Shown here: positions 46,327-61,806 of the stretch, piece by piece
Layout: each line of letters begins with the position of its first letter
Numbering within the stretch: position 1 is the stretch's first letter
Virus record (IMG/VR): IMGVR_UViG_3300021088_000005
Span: 1-64,000 of that record
Strand: one strand, 5' to 3'
DNA length: 64,000 bases
Source: a virus
The notes under the pieces: model-generated
What the model was told of the DNA's origin: nothing
Databases searched by the model: none
The model's input: the letters and a program-made list of their open reading frames with translations, nothing else
Position numbers and translations under genes: made by a program

Positions 46327-47187
46327 TTATAGATCAGAAACTATAAAAACTTGTTCGAGTGTAAGAGCGCTGGACCCGCTGGTAAAGCATTCACTTGACG
46401 CGCAATACCGCAAATTAGTACTAGCAGATGGGAGGTGTGTTGTAATAGTAGCAACAAGAGCGCCATTTATATAAAATGTAACATTAGGAATAGTATCATT
46501 AAAAATTATTCCGAATTCAACCGGACCGTTGATAATCGGGGCAATTCCAGAACTTACGATAGTCTGGGTCGTTCCATCTTTTGTAATACACTGCCACGAT
46601 GTGTCGGGTACTGTAGTATCATACCTAAATGCAGCGTAATTTCCGGCGGGATTAGCGCTTGCACCCTGCGTTGCAAGAGTTTGATCTGTTAACCCAAACC
46701 ACCATCTTTCGTCTGTAATCCTTCCTCCGGGACCTGCTATCATCAAAAAAGCTATATTTCTTCCGGTTCTGTAGTTAGCGTTTCCGGATGCACCGCTTAC
46801 AACATTATTGCTGTTTACGAAAATACCGATTGCCGGGCCTAGTGTTGCATTTACTATGTCTGCAACTGAACTTCCTGAAGTAGTGTTGACATCCCCTATT
46901 GTAGAAAATGTCGTAGTAGAACCGTCTGCGCTGCCTATGGTCTGTCGTCTATGGCCCAACACACCCGCTGTGGACCCGCTACCAGCGTTGGCCTGAACGA
47001 ATGCGGTAGTCGCTATCTGATTTGTATTAGTGCCAAGTGTCGCTGTAGGAGCAGTTGGAATACTGGTCAGAGCAGGGGACACAGACAGAACAACTGTTCC
47101 CGACCCTGTAGTACCATCCGATAGGTCTGCCGCAGCGGGCTGCTGAAGACCTACCGGAGTCAGATACTTGTTAGTTGCATTGCTCAT
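46327..47187 (-). CDS. Tail fibre protein with lectin-like C-domain
   Basis: SPALTSIPTAPTA..GTNTNQIATTAFVQA fibre motif; VTFYINGALVATITTHLP. Confidence 0.7.
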   Translation of the reverse strand: MSNATNKYLTPVGLQQPAAADLSDGTTGSGTVVLSVSPALTSIPTAPTATLGTNTNQIATTAFVQANAGSGSTAGVLGHRRQTIGSADGSTTTFSTIGDVNTTSGSSVADIVNATLGPAIGIFVNSNNVVSGASGNANYRTGRNIAFLMIAGPGGRITDERWWFGLTDQTLATQGASANPAGNYAAFRYDTTVPDTSWQCITKDGTTQTIVSSGIAPIINGPVEFGIIFNDTIPNVTFYINGALVATITTHLPSASTNLRYCASSECFTSGSSALTLEQVFIVSDL

Positions 47188-48341
47188 TAGATTCCTATTG
47201 CTCTAGCTCTATAGGCAAACTGCATCGGAGTAGCTCCGCTAGACGCATATGCGGTTACCTGCCCGACATCAAACTGGATATTTGTAGACGCCTTTGCGTT
47301 TACGACAAATGTTCCCTGAACAAATGTCGATAAGGTGTTTGTCGTAAGCCCGGATGTCAACGGAACAGTAATCGTTGCTCCGCTATCTTGGTCCGTCCAC
47401 TTGATTCTAGAATCCGGTAAGGTAGATGAAACAGTAGCGGCTTGACTTACTATCATGAATACTTCTATCAAATACAACCCCGCACTAACTACAGCAAACA
47501 GGGTTGTCGCTGCTATGTTAGCAGACTGTGCTGTTAAATTTGCGGAACCTGATACAGAAATTCCGCCGCCTGTGCCATTTGACACCGCTGTAATAATGCC
47601 CTGAGCATCTACAGTTAGGTTTGTATTTGTGTACGATCCGGCTACAACTCCTGCCTGAGCCTTGACCGCTATTGTGTTATTCGGCCACGAACCTGTAATC
47701 GTTATATCCGCGCCCTGTACTAAACCAGGGGTCGCTGTTCCTGTACCACCAGATGCTATGCCAAGTATTCCGGATATGTCTGTGAACGCAAGCTGTCCCA
47801 CAGTAAACGATCCGCCAACTGTGCTTTGCTGGACAACTTGGTGCGCTCCACCAGTAGCCGATAGGATAGACCCCGTTCCACCAGATGCCACGCCTAGCGG
47901 ATTGCTAATAGTCAAACTTCCTATAATTGATAGAGTGCTGGTACCGTTGTTCCACTCAAACTGCGCCGCTCCTGCAAGCGCTCCGCCGTTATTAAACTGA
48001 ACAGCGCTGTTAGGACCTGCGGCAGCAGCGTTAACAAACTCCTGCACTGTAGATGTAACAGACGAAGCCGCTGCGGAGTTTATGCTTGGTATTCCGCTAG
48101 GCGGAAGCGGCGCGATACGGAATGAGCTAAGGCCGGGACGATTGTACTGCTTTAGAGTATCCGGCGAATACTGCAACGGCAGAGGAATCGTTGTACGTAA
48201 ATAAGGTGAAGATTGAGTCTCTGCTGTCGGTGACTGGCTCGGTCCTGTCGGAGTAAGGTTCGGAATTTGCGGCTGCGGAACATCTGGTGGTGGCGCAGGC
48301 GTCCAGCCTTTCATTTCCGGGAAGAAATCGGAAAGAGCCAT
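47187..48341 (-). CDS. Tail fibre protein
   Basis: VQFNNGG, LGVASGGTG repeats, AGSYTNTNLTVDAQG. Confidence 0.7.
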   Translation of the reverse strand: MALSDFFPEMKGWTPAPPPDVPQPQIPNLTPTGPSQSPTAETQSSPYLRTTIPLPLQYSPDTLKQYNRPGLSSFRIAPLPPSGIPSINSAAASSVTSTVQEFVNAAAAGPNSAVQFNNGGALAGAAQFEWNNGTSTLSIIGSLTISNPLGVASGGTGSILSATGGAHQVVQQSTVGGSFTVGQLAFTDISGILGIASGGTGTATPGLVQGADITITGSWPNNTIAVKAQAGVVAGSYTNTNLTVDAQGIITAVSNGTGGGISVSGSANLTAQSANIAATTLFAVVSAGLYLIEVFMIVSQAATVSSTLPDSRIKWTDQDSGATITVPLTSGLTTNTLSTFVQGTFVVNAKASTNIQFDVGQVTAYASSGATPMQFAYRARAIGI

Positions 48342-48344
48342 CCT

Positions 48345-51300
48345 TTATTCCTCTGGAGGCTGCTCTACCGTACCGAAAACGGTTAGGGACAATACCTCGT
48401 TCGCAAAATTTTCCGCAGGGAAGCTTACCTTGACCTGCATGTGTTCCGCTAGAGCAGGAACTCCTGCCGCACGGAAGTAATACGCATTTGAATACAAACT
48501 TGTCGGCTGTTTAGTAGCCCCGTATATCTGCCACGGATACGCCTGAGACTGCGGGAATGTCGTGAATGTTCCGGATATTTCGTTCAACAAGAATCCGACA
48601 GTTGGGGTTGTTCCTACGCGAGTTGCTCGCAGGTTAACGAATGTCAATCCGGCGATCTGCCCTGGGTTTACCAGGTTGATGTTGCCCATCGTGAAACTGC
48701 AAGTATATGGGGTTCCGTCGTCCTCGTAAGTTGAGAAGTCTCTTTGCAAAATATGCTTGTTTGAGCCGATTCCGCCTACAAGTAGTCTGTGAACGCCATT
48801 AGAAACTTCGATGCTCAACACTGCTCCCGCACCACCTGTAATTGTCGCAAACGGACTCCATACTGCAAGGTTGTTCGGGAATTGGCTCGGATTCAGTCGG
48901 TACCAGCCTGTTACTCCGTCTGATATATAGACAGCATTGTCATTGCCGCTTTCGTGAACGGTGACGAATACTTTGGTTGAATCGAACAATGCGAGCTTGT
49001 CCTGGATAGGACCGCCCATACGCTGCGCACCACCGCTAGGGTCTAAACTGATAAACTGGTTGTCGGAAGTGTACATGTAAATAACGCCGCCATGAATATC
49101 CAGAGCGTTGTAGTGCAGCAATCCGACTCCTGGAATCATCGGGGTTGGGAAGAACGTAGTGAATACAGGTCCGCCCAATATAGCGTAAACATCTGATGTT
49201 AAGAATACCAAAATGCCTGTTGCTGTCGGCACAATCCTAGTTACCGGACTCGGGAACTCAAAGAAGTCCAACGGGTCGAACGCTTCGTTCGGATTTCCGG
49301 TCAATACATCCGGTCCGCCAGAAGCAAACACGAAGTTTCCTACCGCACCCCAAATTCTCTCGAAGTGATACGCCATAGGCAAGAATCCCGCAGGCGGAGG
49401 GTTGTTTTGGTTGTTGATCGGCGCTTCGATGAACTGGTTTATAACAGAATCCGGCTGCACGTCCTTGACAGTTTGGAACTGTTGAATTCCGCCAATCGGA
49501 GGAGTATTTGGAACTTCGGTCAAGAAGAACAAAGTGCTTCCGCCGTCTAGAGTTCTCCAGATTACGATAGTATCTACCTGAGGGTCAGGTGATCCCGGAA
49601 TTGTCAACGTGACCACAGATGTAGGGAACGCAGACGAGAACGTAAACAACGGTGACGCAGTTGACACATGCCCGGTTCCCGACCCTGTCGGAGGTCCTAG
49701 AGCACTCGGCCAGTCTGGGGGAGCAGTCGTATTATAGATATCGTTTGCAGTACGACTCTTGTAGCTATACGCATACGACACACTCTTTGTGATCGAAAAT
49801 CCTTGAGTCTGCGCTACTCCAAGATTGAACCAAACTAATCCGTGGGTTGCTATGCCAGAGTGGGTTTCGTTAACTTGGGTTGTGGTTGTGACAACCAATG
49901 TTGTTGCGGTTGAAGCTGTCACCTTTGCTATTACGTTATTTCCGAAGTTCGTGAACCCAGAGAACAAAAATGAGCTACCAGCATAAGCGTTTCCCGCACC
50001 GCCAGTTATTGTTCCGGTATACGTAGTTGACGGTCCGGCAACAGTTACTTGGGTCAGAGCAAAAATACTATCGCTGTCTGCTGTAAGATTTCCAGACGCA
50101 GCCCACGTAGGATGCGCACCTGTCTTACTTTGGCCTGACCTGACCGCAGCTTCGATATTGTTGTTGCTATCGATAATCAGCGCTCCGCCATATGGAACTG
50201 CTCCGCTAGGAGGGAACCATCCGGTAGTCGGCAAATACCATGTCTGATTAGCAGCCCAAGTTAACACTTGTCCTACGCAGGTCCATACTACAGTACCGTC
50301 TACAGTGGTCTGCCCGTATCCTTCTGCCCACGAAATACTTGATGTAGCCGTAGCAGACGAGACTCCGCTAGTGGTGCAAACCTGGAAGTTAGCGTTAGCA
50401 TCAATGATTACAGAGAATACCGTGCCTTGAGCGGTAAACGCCACATACGCAGTGTTTGTCAACCTTGTAGAAGACCCAAGGTTCAACCACGCAAGTTGGT
50501 TATCCCCGGTCACTGTTCCTGTGGTGATCGACCACGGTGGTGAAGTTCCACCTGCTCCGGTTGTCTGTGTTGACCCTGTGAAGTTTACCTGATAGAAAAC
50601 CGTCTGATTACTTGGCAATCCACCAGCTAGACCAACAGGCTCGACTACTGTGTTGGTTCGCGAACCGTCTAGTGTGGGAACAACCATTCCTGGCTTCCAC
50701 GGCTGCGGAGTCTTCTGCACGCCAAAGTTAAACCAGATCAGGTTGTTATCTGGGACTGATCCGCCGACTGCTGCGGAGAAGTTCGGACGTGTTGTTCCGC
50801 TTGTTCCGGCGGGGTTAGCCTGCACCTGACAGCAATTTGTGATCGGATCAAATATGATGCAAGGGCTTAATAAAGTTCCACCTGTGGCACTGTTATTGTA
50901 CGAATGCCCCGGTTGCCAGAACGTAATCGGGCCGAAGTTCGTCCAGTCCCACCCGTTATCTAGAGTGAATCCGCCGGGAGTCTGATTCCAGTTTGGCTCT
51001 CCGTTTCCGCCCAATCCGAAACGAGTAGAGTTAGGGTTTGTTGCTGGCTGCGCGTTAACTGAAATTAACTGCTCGATGTTTCCGTTAGAATCTAAGATCA
51101 GCCCCATCGTAGAGAATACGGTATCCTGCTGCCACTGCACTGTCGCAGATGCGCTCGGAGTGATTGTAACGACCGGAGCCGTAGGTCCGGCCACTATTCC
51201 CCAATTCGATACCTTACCGTTAGCCGGGTTGCAGTCCGCTCCGAGAATGAACTTCTGTAAATCAACTCCGTCTCCGTAATACAGGGTATCTGCTACGCCC

Positions 51301-51701
51301 TGGTACTGCCCCTGGTGCGCTCCCGCAGACTTCGTGAAGATCAGGTTCTGGGTTGTCGCACTCTGAATATAAGTAGACGTAGTTGTATCTACAACCACCT
51401 TAGGACCGCAAGACAAAGTTCTCCAATCGTAGAACCAGTTTATCTGATCTGGGACTGTGACTGAAGACCATTCGGACAATCCTGGGCGACGTATAAGAGT
51501 AAGCGCGTTGCTTATCTCCATGTTGCTGCCGTCGATCAATGCATCCGGATAGCCGCCATACTTTGAAATGTACCAAGACGCAGGATCGTGAAGTGGAGAC
51601 CTATTGGTGAACAACCCGGTCTCCATTCTCGCGATATGTATTGGCTTGCCACGCGAAGGATTTCTTACCTGCGCTCCGACAGCTTCCAGCATTCCTGTCA
51701 T
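48345..51701 (-). CDS. Tail nozzle (tubular protein B-like) with inserted Trp-rich repeats
   Basis: N-terminal NMEISNALTLIRRPG; propeller-like C-part; five W..D...W.(N/C).G repeats. Confidence 0.7.
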   Translation of the reverse strand: MTGMLEAVGAQVRNPSRGKPIHIARMETGLFTNRSPLHDPASWYISKYGGYPDALIDGSNMEISNALTLIRRPGLSEWSSVTVPDQINWFYDWRTLSCGPKVVVDTTTSTYIQSATTQNLIFTKSAGAHQGQYQGVADTLYYGDGVDLQKFILGADCNPANGKVSNWGIVAGPTAPVVTITPSASATVQWQQDTVFSTMGLILDSNGNIEQLISVNAQPATNPNSTRFGLGGNGEPNWNQTPGGFTLDNGWDWTNFGPITFWQPGHSYNNSATGGTLLSPCIIFDPITNCCQVQANPAGTSGTTRPNFSAAVGGSVPDNNLIWFNFGVQKTPQPWKPGMVVPTLDGSRTNTVVEPVGLAGGLPSNQTVFYQVNFTGSTQTTGAGGTSPPWSITTGTVTGDNQLAWLNLGSSTRLTNTAYVAFTAQGTVFSVIIDANANFQVCTTSGVSSATATSSISWAEGYGQTTVDGTVVWTCVGQVLTWAANQTWYLPTTGWFPPSGAVPYGGALIIDSNNNIEAAVRSGQSKTGAHPTWAASGNLTADSDSIFALTQVTVAGPSTTYTGTITGGAGNAYAGSSFLFSGFTNFGNNVIAKVTASTATTLVVTTTTQVNETHSGIATHGLVWFNLGVAQTQGFSITKSVSYAYSYKSRTANDIYNTTAPPDWPSALGPPTGSGTGHVSTASPLFTFSSAFPTSVVTLTIPGSPDPQVDTIVIWRTLDGGSTLFFLTEVPNTPPIGGIQQFQTVKDVQPDSVINQFIEAPINNQNNPPPAGFLPMAYHFERIWGAVGNFVFASGGPDVLTGNPNEAFDPLDFFEFPSPVTRIVPTATGILVFLTSDVYAILGGPVFTTFFPTPMIPGVGLLHYNALDIHGGVIYMYTSDNQFISLDPSGGAQRMGGPIQDKLALFDSTKVFVTVHESGNDNAVYISDGVTGWYRLNPSQFPNNLAVWSPFATITGGAGAVLSIEVSNGVHRLLVGGIGSNKHILQRDFSTYEDDGTPYTCSFTMGNINLVNPGQIAGLTFVNLRATRVGTTPTVGFLLNEISGTFTTFPQSQAYPWQIYGATKQPTSLYSNAYYFRAAGVPALAEHMQVKVSFPAENFANEVLSLTVFGTVEQPPEE

Positions 51702-53758
51702 TATCCGCGTCCTCTAGCTGCTTCGCCCTGTTGGGTTTGAATCTGGTTTATCAACTGCTGTGCGTTGACGTTCATGTAGCTCGCCATGAATGCTACACGA
51801 TCCATCTGTGTTAATCCTTCTGTCTTGCCTAGAAGTCCTGCTACTCCACGAGCGATATACTGTGGTGCGCGTGGGTCTTGGCATGAGTCCATGTAATACC
51901 CTAAGCATAGATTGTTGTATATATCCGAGAACGAATCCGGAATTGGGGACCAGGAGTCAGTAACCGCTGTGAACTGAACAGGTTTCTTCTGGTATATCAA
52001 GTTAACTGGAAATATCTTATTTGGTACGGCTGAAAATCTAAATATAGGAGAGACATTTCCTAGGCCGGGAAGTGTCGGATATCCGACAAGTACTGCCTGC
52101 CACTCCGCTGAGGACGCCTGCGTCCAACTTGATGAGTATGTACCCGCTGTAGAAGCCAGCAGCGCAGCAGTACTTAGTTGAACATTGACAAGAGCCGAAT
52201 CCGCAATGGTCCCTGATTGTAGAAGGCTAAACGGCGCTGTAGCCGTAGCTGGCGGAGCGTACCCGGTTGTGAAGGATATTAAAACTTCATTATCCAGTGG
52301 GGTAACTATAGAAGTGGAAGACCAAGATGATCCGGTGCCCTGGCTGTTAACCGGAAATGTAAGCTGTATTGGACCGACTCCTGTTAGAAGCGCCCCCTGA
52401 ACGAGGAAGTTTCTAGGTCCCGGTCCGGTGATAGTGATAACGCTGGTTCCGGAAGCCGTCACAGGCATATTGTATACAACAAATTGGTGATCGTCAACAA
52501 CTGATGGAACTGTCGCAACTGTGAGTGTAACCGCAGTTGCGATGGTAACAGCCCCGGAACTAGTTACTATGCCAGCTAGGGCTCGACCATTAAAAGTTCC
52601 GCCGCCAAGAGTAATACTCGTATTAGCCAGAATGTTGCCGTTAAATACTCCTATGGTTCCTACAGTGGTAGCAGAACTACCTACAAGCCAAACCACATTT
52701 TCAGCACGAGCACCGTTAACCAAAAGAATGGATGCCCCGCTCTCCAAAGTAAGCGTGCTTCCAGCCTTAAAAACGAACATGGCATTTGAATTTCCTTGCG
52801 CGTCCAATGTAATGCTGGTCGGAATGTCCATACTTGTACCAGCGGAATAATTGCCAGGAATATAGGTGCTAGCGTTAGAACCGTTTCCTAGAACAGATAG
52901 ATTAGCAGAAGAACCGCTCAATGACGTAAAACTTAATGCGCTGTAAAAGTTATACGCAGTAAGCGCATCGGTTAACGCCGCAGAAGCACCAGTATTGTTG
53001 ATTGCCGCAGGAGGGGTGAAATTTGCCCCGGTAAAGCCTGTCTCGGTAGCAGTCGGGAACGATCCGATATTACCGCCAGTAATTAGGGTTGCGCCGGAGT
53101 TCGTAATTCCCGCTGCGGCAAGGATAGCGTACGCAGCAGCCGTGCCTAGTTTCGTTGCTACCGGGTCCGATCCCGGAAATGACGCGTTCTGTGATGAAAC
53201 TAGGGTTATCACATTGCCCAAATTATCCGAAACACTTGTGGGATTCCCTACACCGTCACTCATATCAAGCCCGAATACGAGAGTATCTCCGGCTAAAATT
53301 GTTTGAGGTACGGTAAAGCTAAAAGTTGTCTGTCCCGTAAAATTTGAAGAAGAGAAGCTAGTCTTGATTACGGAGTTCAGATTCGGCGTTAGCGGCGTTA
53401 CTCCGAAACGCTGAACTGATATAACTTCAGGACGAGCCTGTGTTGAAGACTTTGCAAGAGACACGGTATTCTGAATGTCCTTCAACTCATAAAGTTTACC
53501 ATCGGTATCCTGCACTGTAGTCTGTTCTAGGAACCCGAAATCCAGGATACTTGTCGGGTAATCTTGTTGAGATATAACTGTTGTGATACTGTCGTCAAAG
53601 TTACGATTGAACGGCCAGGTGAACGGTGCAGATAGGATTAAGTTACGAACAATGTTCGCAATTCCTATGAATGGCATGCCGTTAGTGCCTATATTGGCTG
53701 GCATATACCGACAGTACGGTACGACATAGTTGATGGTGTCTTGTAGAGTATTAGTCAT
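51701..53758 (-). CDS. Head-tail adaptor-like protein carrying a DUF3494 ice-binding domain
   Basis: Adaptor halves (PFTWPFNR...QQDY / FRFSAVPNK...IYQKKP...PIPD) flank LGTAAAYAILAAAGITNSG...ITLDAQGNSNAMFVFK...NGARAENVVWLVGSSAT...GRALA. Confidence 0.8.
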   Translation of the reverse strand: MTNTLQDTINYVVPYCRYMPANIGTNGMPFIGIANIVRNLILSAPFTWPFNRNFDDSITTVISQQDYPTSILDFGFLEQTTVQDTDGKLYELKDIQNTVSLAKSSTQARPEVISVQRFGVTPLTPNLNSVIKTSFSSSNFTGQTTFSFTVPQTILAGDTLVFGLDMSDGVGNPTSVSDNLGNVITLVSSQNASFPGSDPVATKLGTAAAYAILAAAGITNSGATLITGGNIGSFPTATETGFTGANFTPPAAINNTGASAALTDALTAYNFYSALSFTSLSGSSANLSVLGNGSNASTYIPGNYSAGTSMDIPTSITLDAQGNSNAMFVFKAGSTLTLESGASILLVNGARAENVVWLVGSSATTVGTIGVFNGNILANTSITLGGGTFNGRALAGIVTSSGAVTIATAVTLTVATVPSVVDDHQFVVYNMPVTASGTSVITITGPGPRNFLVQGALLTGVGPIQLTFPVNSQGTGSSWSSTSIVTPLDNEVLISFTTGYAPPATATAPFSLLQSGTIADSALVNVQLSTAALLASTAGTYSSSWTQASSAEWQAVLVGYPTLPGLGNVSPIFRFSAVPNKIFPVNLIYQKKPVQFTAVTDSWSPIPDSFSDIYNNLCLGYYMDSCQDPRAPQYIARGVAGLLGKTEGLTQMDRVAFMASYMNVNAQQLINQIQTQQGEAARGRG

Positions 53759-53761
53759 AAA

Positions 53762-54847
53762 TTATCTCGGGTACTGGAACGGCCACGCCGCCCCCTGATA
53801 TCGACCGTTTCTTCCGCCTCCGCCCCTGCTGGTGACTCCCTGCTCCGGGACGAATCGGTTCTCTTCAAGTTCACGGTCTTCGTTCGCACGTAGGTCGTTC
53901 AAACTCTTTAGCCAAATCTGGTAGTTCTTCTCGAACTTCGCCTGGACAGATGCAACTGAACTGTAGCGATAGCACTGCGCGATAACTCCCTGGCGGAAGT
54001 ACGGCTCGTATCTATCCGGCATCGGAGCTAGGGTGTTATCCAAACTTGTAAATCGAACAGGAGGCATCTGTGCGACTAGCTTAAACTGGAACACTGGCCC
54101 GGTCTTTGACGGCACTGGAAGAATACGGATGCCTACTCCGTCAGGGTCTACTACTGTCCAAACTGTGCCGCCGTCTACTGTGTTTGTTCCTGGTGCTGCG
54201 CCAGCGTTCGGCCAATTAGGTGCGGTTGCTCCGCAGGTGCCGTATGTTGTGACAACCTGAAGGTTGCCGTTCGGATCAATTATCTGTGTGATGGGGTTTG
54301 AAGGCTGGTCGTTCGCAGTTGCGTTCAATGGGTTTGTGTACACTGCGTTCGGGCCTGGGTTGTTTCCGATTGTAGGATTACCTGTGTCGGTAGCTCCCCA
54401 TGTTCCGTAGTACAACATGCTGTTCGGAAACCAACTTGCCAAGAATGTCGGGTAAGACCATCCTGCAACCTGCTGGAAGGTTCCTGTGGCTTGCGCCAAC
54501 TGGCGACCACACTCTACGTACCCAAATGGCTTCGGTATCGCATTATTGGTTGACATCAGAATAGCAACCCCGCGCTCAAGCCATTCAACATTGTAGACGC
54601 TAGTGCCGTTCGGATTCAATAGAGCATAGTCCTGTTGGTAGCTGTTTGTGTAGAAATCGGGCAGCTTGACTTCGTTCCACTTGTGAGGGAACGGAACCCC
54701 GCAGATTTCAGTCATAACATCGGTGCAGATAGTAATGAACGGCTCCAACTGGAAGCCGCCGACATTAGCTAAAACCGGGTTCACGTCTCCGAGAGGCTGA
54801 ACCTTATCGAGAATGTTTTGTAGTGTGTATCTAGGTAGAGGAGCCAT
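53762..54847 (-). CDS. Second adaptor-like protein (paralog)
   Basis: PFPHKWN...YQQDY; IRILPVP...PVRFTSL...PMPD; one Trp-rich insert. Confidence 0.65.
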   Translation of the reverse strand: MAPLPRYTLQNILDKVQPLGDVNPVLANVGGFQLEPFITICTDVMTEICGVPFPHKWNEVKLPDFYTNSYQQDYALLNPNGTSVYNVEWLERGVAILMSTNNAIPKPFGYVECGRQLAQATGTFQQVAGWSYPTFLASWFPNSMLYYGTWGATDTGNPTIGNNPGPNAVYTNPLNATANDQPSNPITQIIDPNGNLQVVTTYGTCGATAPNWPNAGAAPGTNTVDGGTVWTVVDPDGVGIRILPVPSKTGPVFQFKLVAQMPPVRFTSLDNTLAPMPDRYEPYFRQGVIAQCYRYSSVASVQAKFEKNYQIWLKSLNDLRANEDRELEENRFVPEQGVTSRGGGGRNGRYQGAAWPFQYPR

Positions 54848-54943
54848 GGTGTTCGACCAGGCTACGGAAAGGCGGGTCTCCAAGACCCATTGTGCCGTAG
54901 TCTTAGAGTGATTCGGAATGGTATATCAGGGTCGATCTCCTAT

Positions 54944-54970
54944 AAAAGTTGGGGCTCGTGTGAGCCCCTA
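54944..54970 (-). terminator. Rho-independent terminator
   Basis: Minus strand GGGGCTC-ACAC-GAGCCCC then AACTTTT. Confidence 0.6.
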
Positions 54971-54978
54971 GACTGCGC

Positions 54979-55509
54979 TTAGGCTAAATCTGCGGTATTG
55001 GTTTGGATCGGCTGCGTATTCAACTGAACTTCTGATGCTGCTGCCGTGTTTGTAGACTCCTGGACCATCGCATACGCTTGCTTCCAGCCTATTCCCGTAT
55101 GGTTCGGAACCTTCTGTCCCTTTCGGACTAGGGTTTCCGCTGTGTCCAAGCTACGCCACTTCATTCCGCAAATCTGGCAACGGATATAGCTTGAGGCATC
55201 GGTAAACGTAAAGAAATACACCGCGTAATCGGTCTTCGGTGACTTCAATCCTCTGCCGCCCTTCTTGTGAGTACACATTTGCTGAATCTTATTCTTTTCG
55301 GCAACTGAGTACTCGGCGTTGATGCGGCGCTGCTCGTTCTTAGCCGCTAACGCTCGTGCTTTCTCTTGTCTATCTTGCAGTGCTTCCTGGCGCTCTGCCA
55401 ATAGAAGCTGGACCAACATTTGTAAGGTCGCTGCATCGGTTGCTGCTGGTGTTGCTGGCGCTGGAGCAGGAGTGCCCTGTCCAGACGCAGGCTTCGTCTG
55501 ATCTGTCAT
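54979..55509 (-). CDS. Zn-binding protein, paralog of 14458..14865
   Basis: CTHKKG...DYA...CQICG...STNTAAASEV. Confidence 0.65.
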   Translation of the reverse strand: MTDQTKPASGQGTPAPAPATPAATDAATLQMLVQLLLAERQEALQDRQEKARALAAKNEQRRINAEYSVAEKNKIQQMCTHKKGGRGLKSPKTDYAVYFFTFTDASSYIRCQICGMKWRSLDTAETLVRKGQKVPNHTGIGWKQAYAMVQESTNTAAASEVQLNTQPIQTNTADLA

Positions 55510-55587
55510 GATGACTCACTTCAGGGCACTGCCCTGGTTTCCGGTTAACCCCGGTAAGGTTGTTTTCGGCTACAAGCCGTCGGAATT

Positions 55588-56238
55588 CTACTCCTGGTCC
55601 GCCCAGGTTGCATTGCTTGTTAGCTCTCGTCTATTACGGAGCCAGTACAAGCTTTTGCGGAATCGCCTGCTGACAGGTCCGTCAGTAGGGTGACCGAATA
55701 TCTCATGGGCTCTTGCCTCTGAGACGATTCCTTTTTCGATCAACTGGACTTCGACTGTGCGCCATCCGCGAAATGCCTCTCCATTTGGCATGCCACGTTT
55801 GTCCAGTCGCAAGACAGACCATTCGTACATAGCGGGCACTTGGAGGTAGCACACTGGTACGACGTGATCTGTTCCTGGTTTGAAAGCCCATAATGCCACG
55901 GTAGCGGGCGGGAACCCGTTATCGATGGTGTAGCACTTAACGCCTTCGTTACGAAGTTTCTCTATGAAGTCCCGAGTACGGATGGGATTGACCTTCCTTG
56001 CTAATTCATTGATTAGCAATTCCTGATCTTCCATCTTGTACCGATACGCCATTTTATCTGACACTTCTTTGTCAGCGAGAATCGCTTCTTGGGCGAATGC
56101 TTTATAGTCTTTCGGCCACTTGAACCAATTTGGGGTTCCACCAGCGAGAAGTTTCTTGATTGTCTCTCGCGTAGTCTTCAAATCCCGATTAACCTCCCAC
56201 GGTTTATCGAGGTTTTGCAGCGGCGGCTTATTAGCCAT
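55588..56238 (-). CDS. Hypothetical protein in the head module
   Basis: 216-aa ORF with SD AAGGA. Confidence 0.65.
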   Translation of the reverse strand: MANKPPLQNLDKPWEVNRDLKTTRETIKKLLAGGTPNWFKWPKDYKAFAQEAILADKEVSDKMAYRYKMEDQELLINELARKVNPIRTRDFIEKLRNEGVKCYTIDNGFPPATVALWAFKPGTDHVVPVCYLQVPAMYEWSVLRLDKRGMPNGEAFRGWRTVEVQLIEKGIVSEARAHEIFGHPTDGPVSRRFRKSLYWLRNRRELTSNATWADQE

Positions 56239-56240
56239 GT

Positions 56241-56768
56241 TCAGTCCTTTATTGCTCTTCGGCGCTGCTGCGCCAAAGACAAATTGTGTTTATGCTCTTC
56301 CGTAAAAACACGACCTTTTGCCTTTTCAGACATCAGTCTTTTTGTTTCTTCGGAGTGCTTCATGCCGAGGCGAGCTTTATTGCCCATCTTAGCGACGGAA
56401 ATCTTTTTGCAATGCTCATCAGACTTCACGTGCTCTGACATACGACGTTTGGTGTCTTCGGACAAACGGAAGCCTAACATCCCTCCGCCGCCGTCAGTTA
56501 GATTATACCCCTTTTCGGGGTTCCTCAAGTCTAAAAACTTAATTAATTCGCGTTCGTAGAAATCCATATCTTCTTTTGTTTTAACAAAAGCCAAGGTTTC
56601 TATCTCAAAATTATCTATGCCGTACTTCTGAATGGCATTATATAAATACGATGGTCTGCGGTGAGTGAATGGCTTTTGATGCCTCTTCCACCGTTTGTCT
56701 AGGCTTTGAGATGTTTGCCCAACATACTGCTTACCGTTAATTTTGTTTGTAACAATATAAATCTGCAT
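56241..56768 (-). CDS. Free-standing GIY-YIG homing endonuclease with NUMOD3-like repeats
   Basis: IYIVTNKINGKQYVGQT...GYNLTDGG; LSEDTKRRMS, HSEETKRLMS, FTEEHKHNLS. Confidence 0.9.
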   Translation of the reverse strand: MQIYIVTNKINGKQYVGQTSQSLDKRWKRHQKPFTHRRPSYLYNAIQKYGIDNFEIETLAFVKTKEDMDFYERELIKFLDLRNPEKGYNLTDGGGGMLGFRLSEDTKRRMSEHVKSDEHCKKISVAKMGNKARLGMKHSEETKRLMSEKAKGRVFTEEHKHNLSLAQQRRRAIKD

Positions 56769-56788
56769 TTTGTTCTCCTCAAAAGAAC

Positions 56789-56856
56789 GGGTCGGGAGAT
56801 ATGTTTGAGGCATATCTCCCACCCTAATCCTAACACGGATGGCCGTCCGTTGTCAA
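56789..56856 (-). promoter_or_regulatory. Promoter and leader hairpin of the GIY-YIG gene
   Basis: TTGACA-18-TAGGAT; 10-bp stem GGGAGATATG/CATATCTCCC followed by TTCTTTT just before SD GAGGAG. Confidence 0.65.
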
Positions 56857-56863
56857 GAGTTAT

Positions 56864-58145
56864 TTACTGAATGGCCGGAACGCTGTCGATCCAACGCATT
56901 CTCTGCGTATTGGCCCCGCGTGCCGGAGGAAGTGATACTGTTTGGTGGCAGTTTTGTTACCTCAATCTCTTGAGGGGTTAGTCATTTCTGCTAACCTCAC
57001 ACGGTTGTTATTCCCGTGTAGCTCAGACTATTGCATCACCCTGTCGGGTGTTCTCTCGCTTAGTCGTTCAGGCTACCTTTCGGCTTGCCCCTCGTTGGCA
57101 TTTCAGCGTTCGAGTCAATCAGAGAGAATTTTCTAACGATAGATTACGCTATCGCGAGTCCATTGTTAACGGATGTATCAAGTCCATTAACGTCAAACTT
57201 ATATGAGCACCAGCCCCCGATTGTTGCTGTCGGGTCGAAGCTGGACGGTGGTGCATTGTCCACAACCTTACAGTCAATCGTGCGCCAGTCGCCTTCACCT
57301 AGGTCCACGTCGCCCGGAACTTCCAACCATACGCCGATCAAAGCGTAGTTACCGAACACATAGGTTCGATAGCCGATCTTACTAGTTGACTGGTAGTTCG
57401 CGGTTGTGGTAACGAACGGAGTCTGACGTAGCACTATGTTCGTACCCGGAAGCTCGATGTCCATCTTCTGGTCTGCACCAGCGATCTTGTCGAACTTCTC
57501 GATGTTGCCAAGCTTCCACAAGTCAACGATTGAGTTGTTCACTGTCGTTGCGTTGAAGATGTCGCCTAGCACGTTCGGGGAAACTGCGCCCATGAACTTC
57601 CCGGCCTTGCAAGGAAGCACGTTCTTTGAAACTAGCTGCTGCTTCAACTCACGGATTGTGCCCAAATCGAGCGTGTACGGAGATGATAGCAAGCTGCTTT
57701 GGTTAACCTGGGTGTCTACAGAAGATGCGCCTGCTGCGTCAGCTACTGCGCTGTACAACTCAGAGATGCTCTGTCCTGCCTGGTAGCCTAGCTCGACTGC
57801 GCTGTTTCCAACTACGTCGTCTAGTGCGCTGGCAATAACAAAGGAACTGAAGTTGCTGTAATTGTTCCACTCACCCACCTGAGCAGGAGAACTGATCTGC
57901 CCGATGAATTCAGGTGAACCTACAACACCGTCTCCAACCTGGGTTGTGTCCCCGGTTAGGGTGTTGTACTGGAAGAACTGACGGTTGATACCAGCGTTCA
58001 ACGGCTGGACACGTCGTTCTGCCGCCGCCAAGAATGCATCTGTTTCTCCCTTTAGGTTCGGGATAAGTTCCTTATCGAACAAGATGCTCTGTGCGGTCAA
58101 TATATTTCCTACGTTTGCTGCTGATGGGGTTGGTGATCCAGCCAT
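56864..58145 (-). CDS. Major capsid protein, spliced: join(58145..57196, 56948..56864), 344 aa
   Basis: Follows the scaffold; exon 1 ends DPTATIGGWCSYK-TT, exon 2 C-HQTVSLPPARGANTQRMRWIDSVPAIQ restores the frame. Confidence 0.85.
56949..57195 (-). mobile_element. Group I intron (247 nt, no ORF) in the capsid gene
   Basis: P1 AAGTT^T/GGACTT with U-G at the splice site; P3 TTCTCTC/GAGAGAA; P7 GACTA/TAGTC in AACGACTAAG and GCAATAGTCT; terminal G. Confidence 0.88.
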
Positions 58146-58188
58146 GGCTGAACCTCGTGTGCGTTAACTCCGCTTGCGCGGGATGCGG

Positions 58189-59343
58189 TTATTTCTTAGC
58201 CTGCGAACGGGATGCGGCGAAAGCTTCTATTTGTGCTCTGATTGCGGGATTACGCATCTTCAGACGCATCGTCGCTCCGTCCCATGACTTAATTTCTTCC
58301 GCTGTGAGTCCTTTCGGGGCTGCTGCACTTGGACGAACGCCTGAGTTCTGTCCAGGTTCAATACCACCGTTGACTCCCGGCCTATGCGCGGCGACTACCG
58401 GATTTGCCGGAGACGCTGCTGGTGCCGGAGCAACTACCTGCGGCTGCACGCTCACAGGTGTTACTGGCTGTTGTACTACTGGTGCTACTACCGGAACCGG
58501 ATTAGCCGGGGGTGTAGGCACGACTGGCTTCTCAACAGGAGCCAGTTCAGATTCCAATGCATGAAAAGCTAGCTCAAGGTTATCGGATGTCCAGGCGAGT
58601 TCGTTCTCCACGAAATACGCCTCGATCATCTTGATATTGGCTTGGCAATTGTTGTAATCGTGCTTGTGATCCGCCAAGAACTTCTGACTTACCATTTGCT
58701 GGCGGTGCAATTCCTGGGCTTCGGCAACTTTCTTGTCTGCCTCTGCCTGAATCTTTCGGGTGTCAGCTTCGTTAACCTTTCGAACAGCTTCTAGCTGCTT
58801 CTGAGGGTCGTCCGACTTCAAGTCCTTCATGTACGCCAATAGCTCTTCGTCTGTCGCCTTTGGAGCGGCTGGTGCTACTGGTTCTTTGAAGGTAAGCTTC
58901 TGCTTCTTCAAGCGGTGAAATGCTCGGGTCGCCTGAACGTGCGCTTCTATGATCTTGCCGCGCATCTCTTCTTCGGTTGCTGCTTCGAGGTGAGTCGGAC
59001 GCCCAATCGGGTTTCCGTCTTCGTCCTTCACCTGATAGTCAACCACAATTTTCTTCGGTGCTACCGAGATTACGGGCTCTACCGGAACAACTTCTGCTAC
59101 AGGGACTACCGGGGTCTCGACCACGGGCTCTGCAACGGTCTCGACTACAGGCTCCGCTACCGGAGTCCTGGACTCGATCTCTGCCTGTGCTGCCTCGACT
59201 TCTGCAATAGGCTTGGCTGCAATGACCTTATAGATGGCTTCGCGCATCTCTGGACGGCGCATCTGGTCTTTCATTGTCTGTCCGTCCCACGATTTAATGT
59301 GATCGAACGTGAGAGTTTCAGGCGTTACGCTTGGTGTTGTCAT
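58189..59343 (-). CDS. Capsid scaffolding protein
   Basis: Between portal and capsid; P/V/E-rich linkers, coiled coil; IKSWDG.TM motif at both termini. Confidence 0.7.
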   Translation of the reverse strand: MTTPSVTPETLTFDHIKSWDGQTMKDQMRRPEMREAIYKVIAAKPIAEVEAAQAEIESRTPVAEPVVETVAEPVVETPVVPVAEVVPVEPVISVAPKKIVVDYQVKDEDGNPIGRPTHLEAATEEEMRGKIIEAHVQATRAFHRLKKQKLTFKEPVAPAAPKATDEELLAYMKDLKSDDPQKQLEAVRKVNEADTRKIQAEADKKVAEAQELHRQQMVSQKFLADHKHDYNNCQANIKMIEAYFVENELAWTSDNLELAFHALESELAPVEKPVVPTPPANPVPVVAPVVQQPVTPVSVQPQVVAPAPAASPANPVVAAHRPGVNGGIEPGQNSGVRPSAAAPKGLTAEEIKSWDGATMRLKMRNPAIRAQIEAFAASRSQAKK

Positions 59344-59685: not shown

Positions 59686-61806
59686 TTATAGCGAGGTCTC
59701 TGAGCCGAATGACTCAGGATTATTGCTCGGCTGTCCCTGTTCTTCCATATTCAAACTATGCTCTGTAGCTGCACGTAGGGCTTCCGCGCCAGCCTTGCCC
59801 AAGGTCTTCTGATCTTCCAAAACCTGGTCTTGCTGGAACTTCTGCTGTTGCATAGCCTGCTGACCCTTGATCTGCTGCGCTTGCATTGCGGCAGGAGAGT
59901 TAGCTTCGTATCTTTGTACTTGTTCCGGCGTCATCGGCTTCAAGAAGTCCTGACTGAACTTCCATCCTGCCGCGTCAGTAAATGCCTTGAAGATCGCCAC
60001 TGCGTCAAACATCCAGTGCGCGTCATTGACACTCTTCTGGAACGTCGGGTTGTTCAACAACTGTATGATTACTGGTAGCGCCTGGGCCATTTCCTTCTTT
60101 GCGCCCAACTTTGCGCCTGCTAGGACTTCATACTCGAACTTCGCAGTGCGAAACTCGATATGATCCCCTAGATACTTAGTTCCCATCTCTTCGCCAAGAA
60201 CTCGGCGGAGAACTGATGTTGGGAGCAACAGGTTGTTTAGCTCGTCCATCTGGTAGAGCCACGGTTCGAAAACCTGCTCTACTAAACGGCTGGTGGGTCC
60301 GTCCAATCGAGACGCATTAGCCTGTCCGACTAATGACGCTCCGGTTGCGGAACGCATTCCGGTTGTCTTAACACCCGGACTGCCTGCGCCCATCATAACT
60401 TGTTCGTTAGCGCCTGATGTCTGCTGCGCGGTAGACGCTGCCTGCTGCAAAAACTGCCACGCTTCGCCGGGAACCGGAGGCATCGTCAAGAACTTGAATG
60501 CCTTGTCCACGTCGTCGTCCACGTCGATAATGCCGCCCTGCTTCCAGCGGGTCATCTGCGTAGGAACATTGAATCCCTTCTTACGAATAGCAGTTGGCTG
60601 CAACCCGTATGCAAGTAGATCGAGAGCCAGGTTAGTGATACCCTGCTCTACAACTTGCTCAGGACCGATTAACTGACCGAGACCCTGGCCATAGAAGCTG
60701 TCAGGAAGATCGCGCCAGTTTGCGCTAAAGAATGGAAGCTTACCGTATGGGTTAGCTTCATTCCTGATTAGAATGTTTATGCCGTTGAATGTCAGAACAA
60801 CGATAACCCTATCCTTATCCCATCGCTCAAGGATTTCCATCGGGTTGTCTAGAGGGTTGGCACTGGTCTTCCTGCTTCTCGGAAGAGCCTGCTGCAAATA
60901 CCCCCACATGCCTTCCGGGATGGTCATGCTGATATTGTCTGCGCCGACTGTCGGGGCTGACAAAAAGAATGACTTCAAGTCTGCTTCGCTCGGGATGCTG
61001 TACCCCGGAACACCACGGAGAATGTTTAGATCGTCGTAGGTCGCGTAGTCTCGGTAGATAACCCACTTAGCTTCGCGAATATCACCAACTCGACAACCCA
61101 TGTCAACCAAAACCGTACGGATATCGCAGTACCTGATCCACGGTCGAGAAATCTTAACTGCTTCAACGAATACTTCGTACTCGTCGGAATCGGGCGTATC
61201 AATAGCGGGTGTTGGAGCTATCGAGTCGAGATTAAGCTGTTGAGCCTTGCGGCGAACACTCTTAACCTTATCGTCGCGCTCTAGGTAACCCCACTTGAAT
61301 ATGGTCGTTCCTAGTAGAGCCATCTGGTCTACGCCGCGCTGCATCTGGGTTCTGAACTTCATGTCCCATAGCTGTGCGGAGAACAGAGCAGTCTTGGCTC
61401 GGGTCACGTCTGGCTTCGTTCCCGGACGCGGGCGAAGCAAGAATGGTGGGTCTTCGTAAAACAAACCCTCTATGACCTTAGGGCTGATTGCGCTCAAATG
61501 ATTTGATAGAGTAAACTTCGGAACATTAGCCTGAGCCACGTTTCCGCCGTCAAAAGCTGACGAGTCACGCGGGCTCTGCAAAAGAATCAAACTTTCAGTC
61601 CAGTTAGACGCCCACTGGTTAATGTTGGCGTAGGTGTCAGCAGCCGCAGCATCGTCTATAACAAGCTTTAACGCTGCTTCGTTATCGAACATGTACGCCC
61701 CGGTTTCGGCGTCCTGGGTCATGTTCTCTGATGTTATGGTGCCCACAGGCTCAACCGCTATCCTCTCGATAGTATCGGCTGCATGCTGGTTTAAGGCTTC
61801 CGTCAT
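59686..61806 (-). CDS. Portal protein
   Basis: Follows the terminase; LGTTIFKWG, NPYGKLPF...SFYGQGLG, RSATG, Q-rich C-terminal barrel region. Confidence 0.85.
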   Translation of the reverse strand: MTEALNQHAADTIERIAVEPVGTITSENMTQDAETGAYMFDNEAALKLVIDDAAAADTYANINQWASNWTESLILLQSPRDSSAFDGGNVAQANVPKFTLSNHLSAISPKVIEGLFYEDPPFLLRPRPGTKPDVTRAKTALFSAQLWDMKFRTQMQRGVDQMALLGTTIFKWGYLERDDKVKSVRRKAQQLNLDSIAPTPAIDTPDSDEYEVFVEAVKISRPWIRYCDIRTVLVDMGCRVGDIREAKWVIYRDYATYDDLNILRGVPGYSIPSEADLKSFFLSAPTVGADNISMTIPEGMWGYLQQALPRSRKTSANPLDNPMEILERWDKDRVIVVLTFNGINILIRNEANPYGKLPFFSANWRDLPDSFYGQGLGQLIGPEQVVEQGITNLALDLLAYGLQPTAIRKKGFNVPTQMTRWKQGGIIDVDDDVDKAFKFLTMPPVPGEAWQFLQQAASTAQQTSGANEQVMMGAGSPGVKTTGMRSATGASLVGQANASRLDGPTSRLVEQVFEPWLYQMDELNNLLLPTSVLRRVLGEEMGTKYLGDHIEFRTAKFEYEVLAGAKLGAKKEMAQALPVIIQLLNNPTFQKSVNDAHWMFDAVAIFKAFTDAAGWKFSQDFLKPMTPEQVQRYEANSPAAMQAQQIKGQQAMQQQKFQQDQVLEDQKTLGKAGAEALRAATEHSLNMEEQGQPSNNPESFGSETSL

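Follow-up and report, generated by a model that had tools for sequence, protein, structure and literature searches.

An uncultured soil phage carries a complete DUF3494 domain, the microbial 'ice-binding protein' fold, nested inside a second inserted domain of the head-tail adaptor, the ring protein that joins head to tail, so that about a dozen copies probably project from each particle. The gene (51701-53758, minus strand) lies within the 64,000-nt window (positions 1 to 64,000 of the IMG/VR record IMGVR_UViG_3300021088_000005) and encodes a protein of 685 residues, hereafter P0001. A first-pass annotation from the sequence alone had placed a DUF3494-like sequence at 52520-53160 (residues 200-412), within a beta-sandwich inserted between two adaptor halves and absent from the neighbouring paralog, and this observation held in full. 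Its interpretation was only partly supported: every structural claim was confirmed, whereas the proposed roles (tethering to ice, freeze-thaw protection or adhesion) and the presence of the protein in virions remain inferences, the latter from homology alone.

The DUF3494 cassette

The Pfam profile PF11999 (Ice_binding/DUF3494) matched residues 212-406 over profile positions 1-202 of 208 (E 5.5e-36; 124.6 bits against a cut-off of 28.7), and a six-frame search of the genome returned the same place (52538-53125, 126.7 bits). A phmmer search of the PDB found 23 ice-binding or antifreeze chains, the best being 5UYT (1.9e-26) and 7BWX (3.5e-21). When residues 191-425 were modelled separately with AlphaFold2 from 105 sequences, the domain was predicted with high confidence (pLDDT 94.5, pTM 0.91) as a discontinuous beta-solenoid of stacked strands with a helix alongside (model residues 68-83), and all 26 matches listed by Foldseek at E≤1e-7 were DUF3494 ice-binding proteins, a result far beyond chance. 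The closest of these are the cap-less single-domain IBP-1 proteins EfcIBP (6EIO; TM 0.77/0.81, rmsd 2.4 Å), AnpIBP (7BWX/7BWY) and IBPv (5UYT), which as a group superpose with TM 0.73-0.85 and rmsd 2.4-3.1 Å at 33-35% identity. Those are free proteins of cold-adapted cells with proven ice binding, whereas the phage domain is an internal cassette, without a signal peptide, in a phage structural protein. Two residues of AnpIBP, S153 and T156, whose Tyr substitutions cut activity to 17% (PMC7277481), align with S361 and T364, and the rungs S334-T335-x-T337, S361-S362-x-T364 and T380-S381-x-T383 of the flat B face are conserved. Stacked S/T-S/T-x-T rungs are likewise kept in 126 phage-side domains. 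However, the same Thr/Ser ladder is equally conserved in cellular PF11999 homologs, which are common in soil bacteria not known as cold specialists such as Streptomyces, Clavibacter and Nocardioides, so that it does not discriminate between ligands and the family name alone does not show ice binding. In this respect the first-pass description of DUF3494 proteins as belonging to cold-adapted microbes was too narrow.

Comparison with 185,579 species genomes placed the cassette in a clade kept apart from 79 bacterial and archaeal homologs (at most 48% identical). Members of this clade lack signal peptides, as judged by a crude hydropathy heuristic that is biased upward for the cellular set, and the assignment of all 106 phage-side metagenome proteins to viruses rests only on this feature and on the tree. 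In other viral contigs the same domain sits in nozzle-like, fibre-like and small proteins and stays 59-87% identical across unrelated carriers, related domains also occur on long contigs (150-465 kb), and the present genome encodes a second DUF3494 protein next to a collagen-like fibre gene. No PHROG family matched either DUF3494 protein of this phage, none of 50,697 GenBank phage records matched the domain, and in BFVD the fold was found only in Hyperionvirus sp. (A0A3G5A745, A0A3G5AEI1, A0A3G5ACG7; E 1e-12 to 1e-7), a giant virus of eukaryotes whose proteins are not known to be virion parts and share only 23-32% identity. In the literature searched, DUF3494, ice-binding and phage came together in one paper, with none of these terms in its title or abstract. 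Both components are known families, while their combination is not described in anything we could search.

An adaptor with nested insertions

The carrier is a podophage head-tail adaptor of the SU10/T7-gp11 type. Its N-half (residues 1-116; 53411-53758, minus strand) comprises two helices plus beta strands and holds the family-conserved residues P29, P45, W48, N51, R52, D66, E78 and P110, while its C-half (residues 573-685; 51704-52042, minus strand) comprises beta strands plus four helices with conserved R574, Y583, Q590, W603, P607, D608, L642, G648, L649 and F657. Plain Foldseek on the full-length model gave only weak adaptor matches (E 0.05-0.6), and a profile of short adaptors against PDB sequences gave a single marginal hit (tail tubular protein A, E 0.87). 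With VIA-align, by contrast, the top 14 matches were all solved podophage adaptors (among them PDB 7Z47, 8JOV, 9K09 and 9LC0), spanning model residues 1 to ~653 with 168-191 residues aligned: GP4 at Z 13.6 (189 of 213 residues), A4 at 13.2, SU10 (7Z47_B) at 11.2 (178 of 228) and N4 at 11.0, the next unrelated folds scoring Z 7 or less. The model shows the helix-bundle plus beta-domain layout of these adaptors. At the sequence level, P0001 scores 17 bits and a second sequence, P0002, 19.1 bits against the PF24175 (SU10_adaptor) cut-off of 27, whereas 62 of 93 short family members match at E≤0.01 (best 8.7e-12) and the relatives P0130 and P0132 pass the cut-off.

Gene order fits this identity. 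The terminase (61819-63984), a portal of the SU10 type (59686-61806, minus strand; PF23899 at 9e-18) and the capsid gene (57144-58145) are followed by an adaptor paralog, the present gene and a large protein, an order also seen in the isolated phage Tunturi_3 and in L007, the source of a 243-aa adaptor. The divergent upstream paralog (53762-54883, minus strand; 373 aa) matches the adaptor family by hhalign (probability 97.8%, E 9.9e-13), is the ortholog of Tunturi_3 gp12 (38% identity, 2e-68), has no PF11999 match and carries a different insert at the equivalent place. The start of the cassette-bearing gene lies 3 nt after the stop of this paralog, and its stop overlaps the start of the next gene by 1 nt. 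That downstream gene (48345-51701, minus strand) encodes a 1118-aa probable tail hub or nozzle, so designated by position only, as it gave no PDB sequence match and only feature-level leads; it holds one copy of a ~70-aa repeat (49836-50021), and nozzle-like relatives in other viral contigs carry the DUF3494 cassette. An Rfam search at gathering threshold found nothing in 48000-58500, and no RNA data set carrying the gene was found.

Solved adaptors have about 195-236 residues, whereas a loop in the beta part of P0001 carries a 456-aa insert (residues 117-572). The first part of beta-sandwich A (residues 117-198; 53165-53410, minus strand) was predicted with pLDDT 86-94 for residues 131-190, lower (73 and 55) in the 10-residue blocks at either end, and the region 124-459 aligns to jelly-roll and CBM-like sandwiches at Z 6-7. 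The cassette proper (residues 199-427; 52478-53164, minus strand), with a solenoid core at 204-411 and short linkers on either side, occupies a loop of this sandwich, and is followed (52043-52477, minus strand) by the rest of sandwich A (residues 428-460) and a second beta-sandwich B (residues 465-565). The full-length AlphaFold2 model did not fold the cassette (pLDDT below 50 for residues 195-420), because only 8 alignment rows covered it, and so gives no position for the B face relative to the ring; a mixed alignment of adaptors and ice-binding proteins misaligned the flanks and was discarded.

Relatives display a stepwise nesting. The 243-aa adaptor of L007 is 53% and 70% identical to the N- and C-halves and has an empty site of about 10 residues, and Tunturi_3 has a 304-aa gp13 with the same break point. 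A 452-aa form (P0124) has the sandwich without the ice-binding domain, and its three-way alignment with P0001 and L007 set the cassette boundaries. The 685-aa form adds the cassette, and 775-924-aa forms have further repeats; in P0005, P0006 and P0008, of the metagenomic orthologs P0004-P0010, one to three ~70-aa repeats are nested at about residues 445-450. None of 148 other adaptor-family representatives has a DUF3494 domain. An independent soil run from another study contains an identical 821-nt contig (52315-53135) that bridges the downstream cassette junction at 52477/52478, which is therefore not an assembly chimera, and the contigs aligned to the gene, in a set covering only small shares of the stretch, showed no cassette-less joint.

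The cassette is the most conserved part of the protein, being 81-87% identical among seven orthologs against 42-74% for the other parts, with dN of 0.09 against 0.19-0.32. As synonymous sites are saturated, no dN/dS ratio can be given for the cassette. Its GC content (0.486) does not differ from that of the rest of the gene (0.469) or of the window (0.498), giving no sign of recent foreign origin.

What the cassette may bind

Taken together, the analysis establishes, with little doubt, the anatomy: a SU10/T7-gp11-type adaptor with a nested insert, close relatives with an empty site or the sandwich alone, and a cassette under the strongest purifying selection in the protein, from a clade whose members also sit in other tail proteins. 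Display on the particle and ligand binding, by contrast, are inferred. Adaptors form a 12-subunit ring under the portal, and in SU10 and T7 the beta domain is the outward-facing fibre dock (for SU10, PMC9509320), so that the cassette is likely displayed about 12 times around the neck of the tail, the second DUF3494 protein probably adding more copies. We favour a mechanism in which the flat, Thr/Ser-lined B face binds ice, as it does in proven relatives, and the multivalent ring would hold the particle at ice surfaces and liquid veins in freezing soil, or keep ice crystals near the tail small, which would improve survival and host encounter through freeze-thaw cycles. The retention of the AnpIBP ice-face residues is consistent with this, and a domain that is more conserved than any scaffold and recurs on unrelated scaffolds suits a ligand that does not evolve. 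We nevertheless put the probability that ice is the selected ligand at only about 0.45, since the reading is extrapolated from relatives and the sole habitat on record is 'soil metagenome', which does not show cold exposure. A precedent for an ice-binding beta-solenoid that positions a biological particle on ice, rather than acting as a soluble antifreeze, is the Marinomonas primoryensis adhesin MpIBP (PMC5550230, PMC3492233), although this is a 1.5-MDa cellular surface protein of unrelated RTX-type fold and not a virion component.

A generic non-ice adhesin, possible and close behind, would bind a common hydrated surface such as host or biofilm exopolysaccharide, plant or microbial polysaccharide, or mineral and organic soil surfaces, and raise host encounter in the way proposed for Ig-like and carbohydrate-binding decoration domains of other phages. 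Such domains (T4 Hoc, for example) are optional, surface-exposed add-ons inserted into essential virion proteins that related phages gain, lose and exchange; their fold is different, and here the add-on is more conserved than its carrier. In favour of this view, the cassette is optional, relatives gain or lose it, and it moves between adaptor, nozzle-like, fibre-like and small proteins as accessory binding modules do. Moreover, ordinary fibre genes are present (46327-47187), making the cassette accessory, PF11999 homologs are widespread in bacteria not known as cold specialists, the literature treats DUF3494 as substrate-binding and adhesive as well as ice-binding (PMC12337378), and weak fold echoes to cellulose-binding tapirins appear at E about 0.1. 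However, we found no non-ice ligand shown for any PF11999 member, all solved relatives are ice binders, and the residues critical for ice binding in AnpIBP are retained.

It is unlikely that the solenoid has no ligand and serves as a rigid spacer, a stabiliser of the tail neck or a tolerated hitch-hiker: beta-solenoids are robust folds that tolerate grafting and nested insertions pile up in what seems a permissive loop, but the very low dN with saturated dS and the conservation of surface Thr/Ser rungs across more than 100 clusters argue for a selected surface rather than only a stable core, and a spacer role does not explain recurrence on many different scaffolds. Least likely is a primary receptor-binding domain that sets host range, since, although the cassette sits where tail fibres dock on related adaptors and occurs in fibre-like and nozzle-like proteins, receptor-binding domains usually diverge faster than their scaffolds whereas this is the slowest-evolving part, its identity holds across unrelated carriers, close relatives do without it and separate fibre genes exist.

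The series of empty site, sandwich, sandwich plus cassette, and added repeats is a clear natural example of stepwise nested domain insertion in an essential virion protein. It remains a tentative possibility that the phage particle itself binds ice, in which case a pool of DUF3494 cassettes, exchanged among soil phages and grafted onto adaptor, nozzle, fibre and other virion proteins, would be a structural cold adaptation of viruses and, to our knowledge, the first structural ice-binding module described in any virus particle. If the cassette binds ice, it would explain how soil and peat phages persist and find hosts through freezing, and would supply naturally multivalent ice-binding scaffolds; if it binds something else, it would be direct evidence that DUF3494 is a general adhesion fold, which bears on how thousands of 'ice-binding' annotations in non-cold microbes are read.

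A DUF3494 domain within a podophage tail adaptor

The segment 52520-53160, in which the first-pass annotation had seen an ice-binding domain built into a virion tail-adaptor protein, lies on the minus strand inside ORF 51701-53758, which encodes a protein of 685 aa (P0001). Pfam PF11999 (Ice_binding, DUF3494) matches aa 212-406 of P0001 over profile positions 1-202 of 208 (E 5.5e-36, 124.6 bits, cut-off 28.7), and a six-frame search of the whole 100,810-bp virus record gave the same place. A phmmer search of PDB sequences returned 23 ice-binding or antifreeze chains and nothing else, led by IBPv 5UYT (1.9e-26) and AnpIBP 7BWX (3.5e-21). Structure prediction of aa 191-425 by AlphaFold2 with a 105-row alignment provided additional support (pLDDT 94.5, pTM 0.91), as Foldseek with this model found only DUF3494 ice-binding proteins at E<=1e-7, the best being EfcIBP 6EIO (TM 0.77/0.81, rmsd 2.4 A, 34% identity) and AnpIBP 7BWY/7BWX (TM 0.74/0.85). 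The observation made in the first-pass annotation is therefore confirmed.

The window is the structural and replication region of a podophage-like genome and encodes, on the minus strand, a large terminase (61819-63984), an SU10-type portal (PF23899, 9e-18), a capsid protein, a GIY-YIG endonuclease, a 373-aa protein (P0002), P0001 and then a 1118-aa protein (P0003). The endonuclease gene (56241-56822, minus strand) is a free-standing GIY-YIG/NUMOD3 homing endonuclease gene just downstream of the capsid gene (PF01541 at 1.9e-11). ARAGORN calls a 102-nt tRNA-Arg(TCT) at 49260-49361 (minus strand), inside the coding frame of P0003, but this is probably a false call, since Rfam at gathering threshold finds no tRNA there (and no family in 48000-58500).

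P0001 and P0002 both touch PF24175 (SU10_adaptor), but below its cut-off. Three further lines settle the identity of P0001 as a tail adaptor: (i) a full-library HMMER search with its last 133 residues found 190 clusters, most of them 200-350 aa long, and of 93 short members 62 match PF24175 (best 8.7e-12), while two longer relatives pass its cut-off; (ii) the AlphaFold2 model of the full protein is confident for aa 1-190 (pLDDT 86-98, apart from one block of 73 at aa 121-130) and mostly confident for aa 421-685 (block means 61-98, most at or above 76); (iii) VIA-align with this model places solved podophage adaptors in the top 14 ranks (GP4 Z 13.6 over 189 of 213 residues, cyanophage A4 13.2, VP1 12.1, SU10 11.2, N4 11.0), each aligning to model residues 1..~650, that is, to both ends of the protein at once. 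P0002 (53762-54883, minus strand) is a divergent paralog of the same family (hhalign probability 97.8%, E 9.9e-13), which carries a different insert and, as the first-pass annotation had stated, has no PF11999 match. The two paralogs are encoded in tandem with a 3-nt gap between the two genes, and the stop of the second gene overlaps the start of the next gene by 1 nt; the pair could form two stacked rings or one mixed ring.

Stepwise nesting of the insert

Relatives of P0001 show the steps by which the insert is nested. At one extreme, IMG/VR contig L007 encodes a 243-aa adaptor that is 53% identical to aa 1-115 and 70% identical to aa 573-674, with about 10 residues standing where P0001 has 456, and with the same neighbours (a 364-aa paralog upstream and a 1056-aa protein downstream). 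An isolate agrees, as the Arctic Acidobacteria phage Tunturi_3 (PP885686) has the same pair, gp12 (371 aa) and gp13 (304 aa, annotated 'tail protein'), and P0001 aa 116 and 565 flank gp13 residues 183 and 187. The 452-aa relative P0124 has the beta-sandwich insert only: it aligns to aa 1-198 (49%) and aa 450-683 (50%), but passes straight from '...GTD' to 'VYN...' where P0001 holds aa 199-427. In contrast, orthologs P0006, P0008 and P0005 (775-924 aa) add one to three copies of a ~70-aa repeat inside the sandwich, just after the cassette. The series is therefore adaptor, then sandwich, then DUF3494, then repeats. In the model, aa 124-195 and 420-460 together align to jelly-roll and CBM-like sandwiches (Z 6-7), and aa 465-565 form a second sandwich. 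Among 148 other adaptor-family representatives, none has a DUF3494 domain and only P0124 has the sandwich.

The ~70-aa repeat (motif Y-T-G-T-I-T-G-G-A-x-N and a later GFT..GNN...ETH) has no Pfam or PHROG match. Besides its nested copies in the orthologs, it occurs once in the hub-like P0003 (49836-50021, minus strand) and more than once in the second DUF3494 protein of this genome, and it looks like another mobile decoration module. The assembly is sound at the downstream cassette junction, which is bridged by an identical 821-nt contig (52315-53135) from a soil run of a different study, and the probable source run covers the whole gene without differences.

A conserved cassette in a pool shared among phages

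The same genome holds a second PF11999 gene outside the window (genome 74001-75758, minus strand, corresponding to L004:10001-11758 in the locus L004), which encodes a 585-aa protein (P0028). The domain sits at the extreme N-terminus of P0028 and is followed by the ~70-aa repeats, and the gene lies beside a collagen-like tail-fibre gene (L004:9256-9921) and a trypsin-like protease gene (L004:11982-12746). As its domain is 72% identical to that of P0001, it is not a recent duplicate. Eleven IMG/VR contigs carry domains 59-87% identical to the P0001 domain, and the carriers are another adaptor, small proteins of ~390-410 aa, an N-terminal fibre-like form, two proteins of 1431 and 1705 aa whose N-termini resemble P0003, and an open frame of 1180 codons that reaches the end of its locus. 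In the two P0003-like proteins (L016:1962-6257 and L021:1020-6137) the cassette lies at aa 1013-1219 and 1327-1535, respectively.

Cellular homologs are distant, the best being only 38-48% identical in a search of one genome for each of 185,579 species. In a FastTree of 206 domains, the 79 cellular rows form one side of a branch (support 100), all but one of the 107 metagenome proteins fall on the viral side, and the adaptor-borne domains form a clade with one nozzle-like copy (support 99), that of L016, which suggests exchange between adaptor and hub-like genes. By a crude hydropathy test, 60 of 76 cellular homologs have a signal-peptide-like N-terminus, against 2 of 119 on the phage side.

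Among seven orthologs the cassette is 81-87% identical to that of P0001, while the adaptor halves are 42-74% and the sandwich parts 49-73% identical. Against the L012 ortholog, dN is 0.09 for the cassette and 0.19-0.32 elsewhere, with synonymous sites saturated. The cassette is thus the most constrained part of an essential protein.

Both DUF3494 proteins of this phage lack a PHROGs family, and tblastn of P0001 against 50,697 GenBank phage records hit only the adaptor C-half of Tunturi_3. BFVD holds the fold only in three proteins of Hyperionvirus sp., a giant virus (A0A3G5A745, A0A3G5AEI1, A0A3G5ACG7). Full-text literature searches on ice-binding proteins and viral contigs turned up no mention of a viral ice-binding protein, and a search on DUF3494 and ice binding in phages led to a single paper, judged on its title and abstract alone, neither of which contains these terms. 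While adaptor and DUF3494 domain each belong to known kinds of protein, the adaptor as carrier of the domain and the full stepwise series of forms are new within the databases and literature searched.

Inferred ligand and display

The analysis thus establishes the identity of the domain, its adaptor carrier and the nested architecture, whereas the ligand and the display on the particle are inferred, such that the interpretation in the first-pass annotation (display on the virion that could tether particles to ice, protect them in freeze-thaw or serve as an adhesin) is only partly supported. AnpIBP binds ice through its B face, and the S153Y and T156Y substitutions cut its activity to 17% (PMC7277481). 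In the HMMER alignment these residues are S361 and T364 of P0001, and stacked rungs S/T-S/T-x-T (334-337, 361-364, 380-383, and also 314-317 and 219-221) are conserved across 126 phage-side domains, which fits an ice-competent face. However, the same rungs are conserved in cellular homologs from Streptomyces, Clavibacter, Nocardioides, Telluria and many temperate-soil genomes assembled from metagenomes, and a recent study treats DUF3494 as both ice-binding and substrate-binding (PMC12337378). Moreover, the only habitat on record is 'soil metagenome', and the isolated relative, which comes from Arctic tundra, lacks the insert.

We therefore tentatively favour ice binding (probability about 0.45), because every tested family member binds ice, the critical residues are kept and the conservation pattern suggests an invariant ligand. 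A role as a non-ice adhesin is possible and follows close behind, whereas a solenoid without any ligand is unlikely. A primary receptor-binding role is the least likely, as the constraint on the cassette is the opposite of what a host-specific receptor-binding tip would show.

How the cassette might be displayed can be inferred from SU10 gp11, which forms a dodecamer between portal and nozzle and consists of a helix bundle, an outward fibre-dock domain and an embracing loop (PMC9509320). In the P0001 model the helices are at aa 5-42 and 608-684, and the insert leaves and re-enters between strands 112-120 and 569-575 of the beta part. By this analogy, about 12 copies of the cassette should therefore project from the rim where fibres dock in SU10 and T7.
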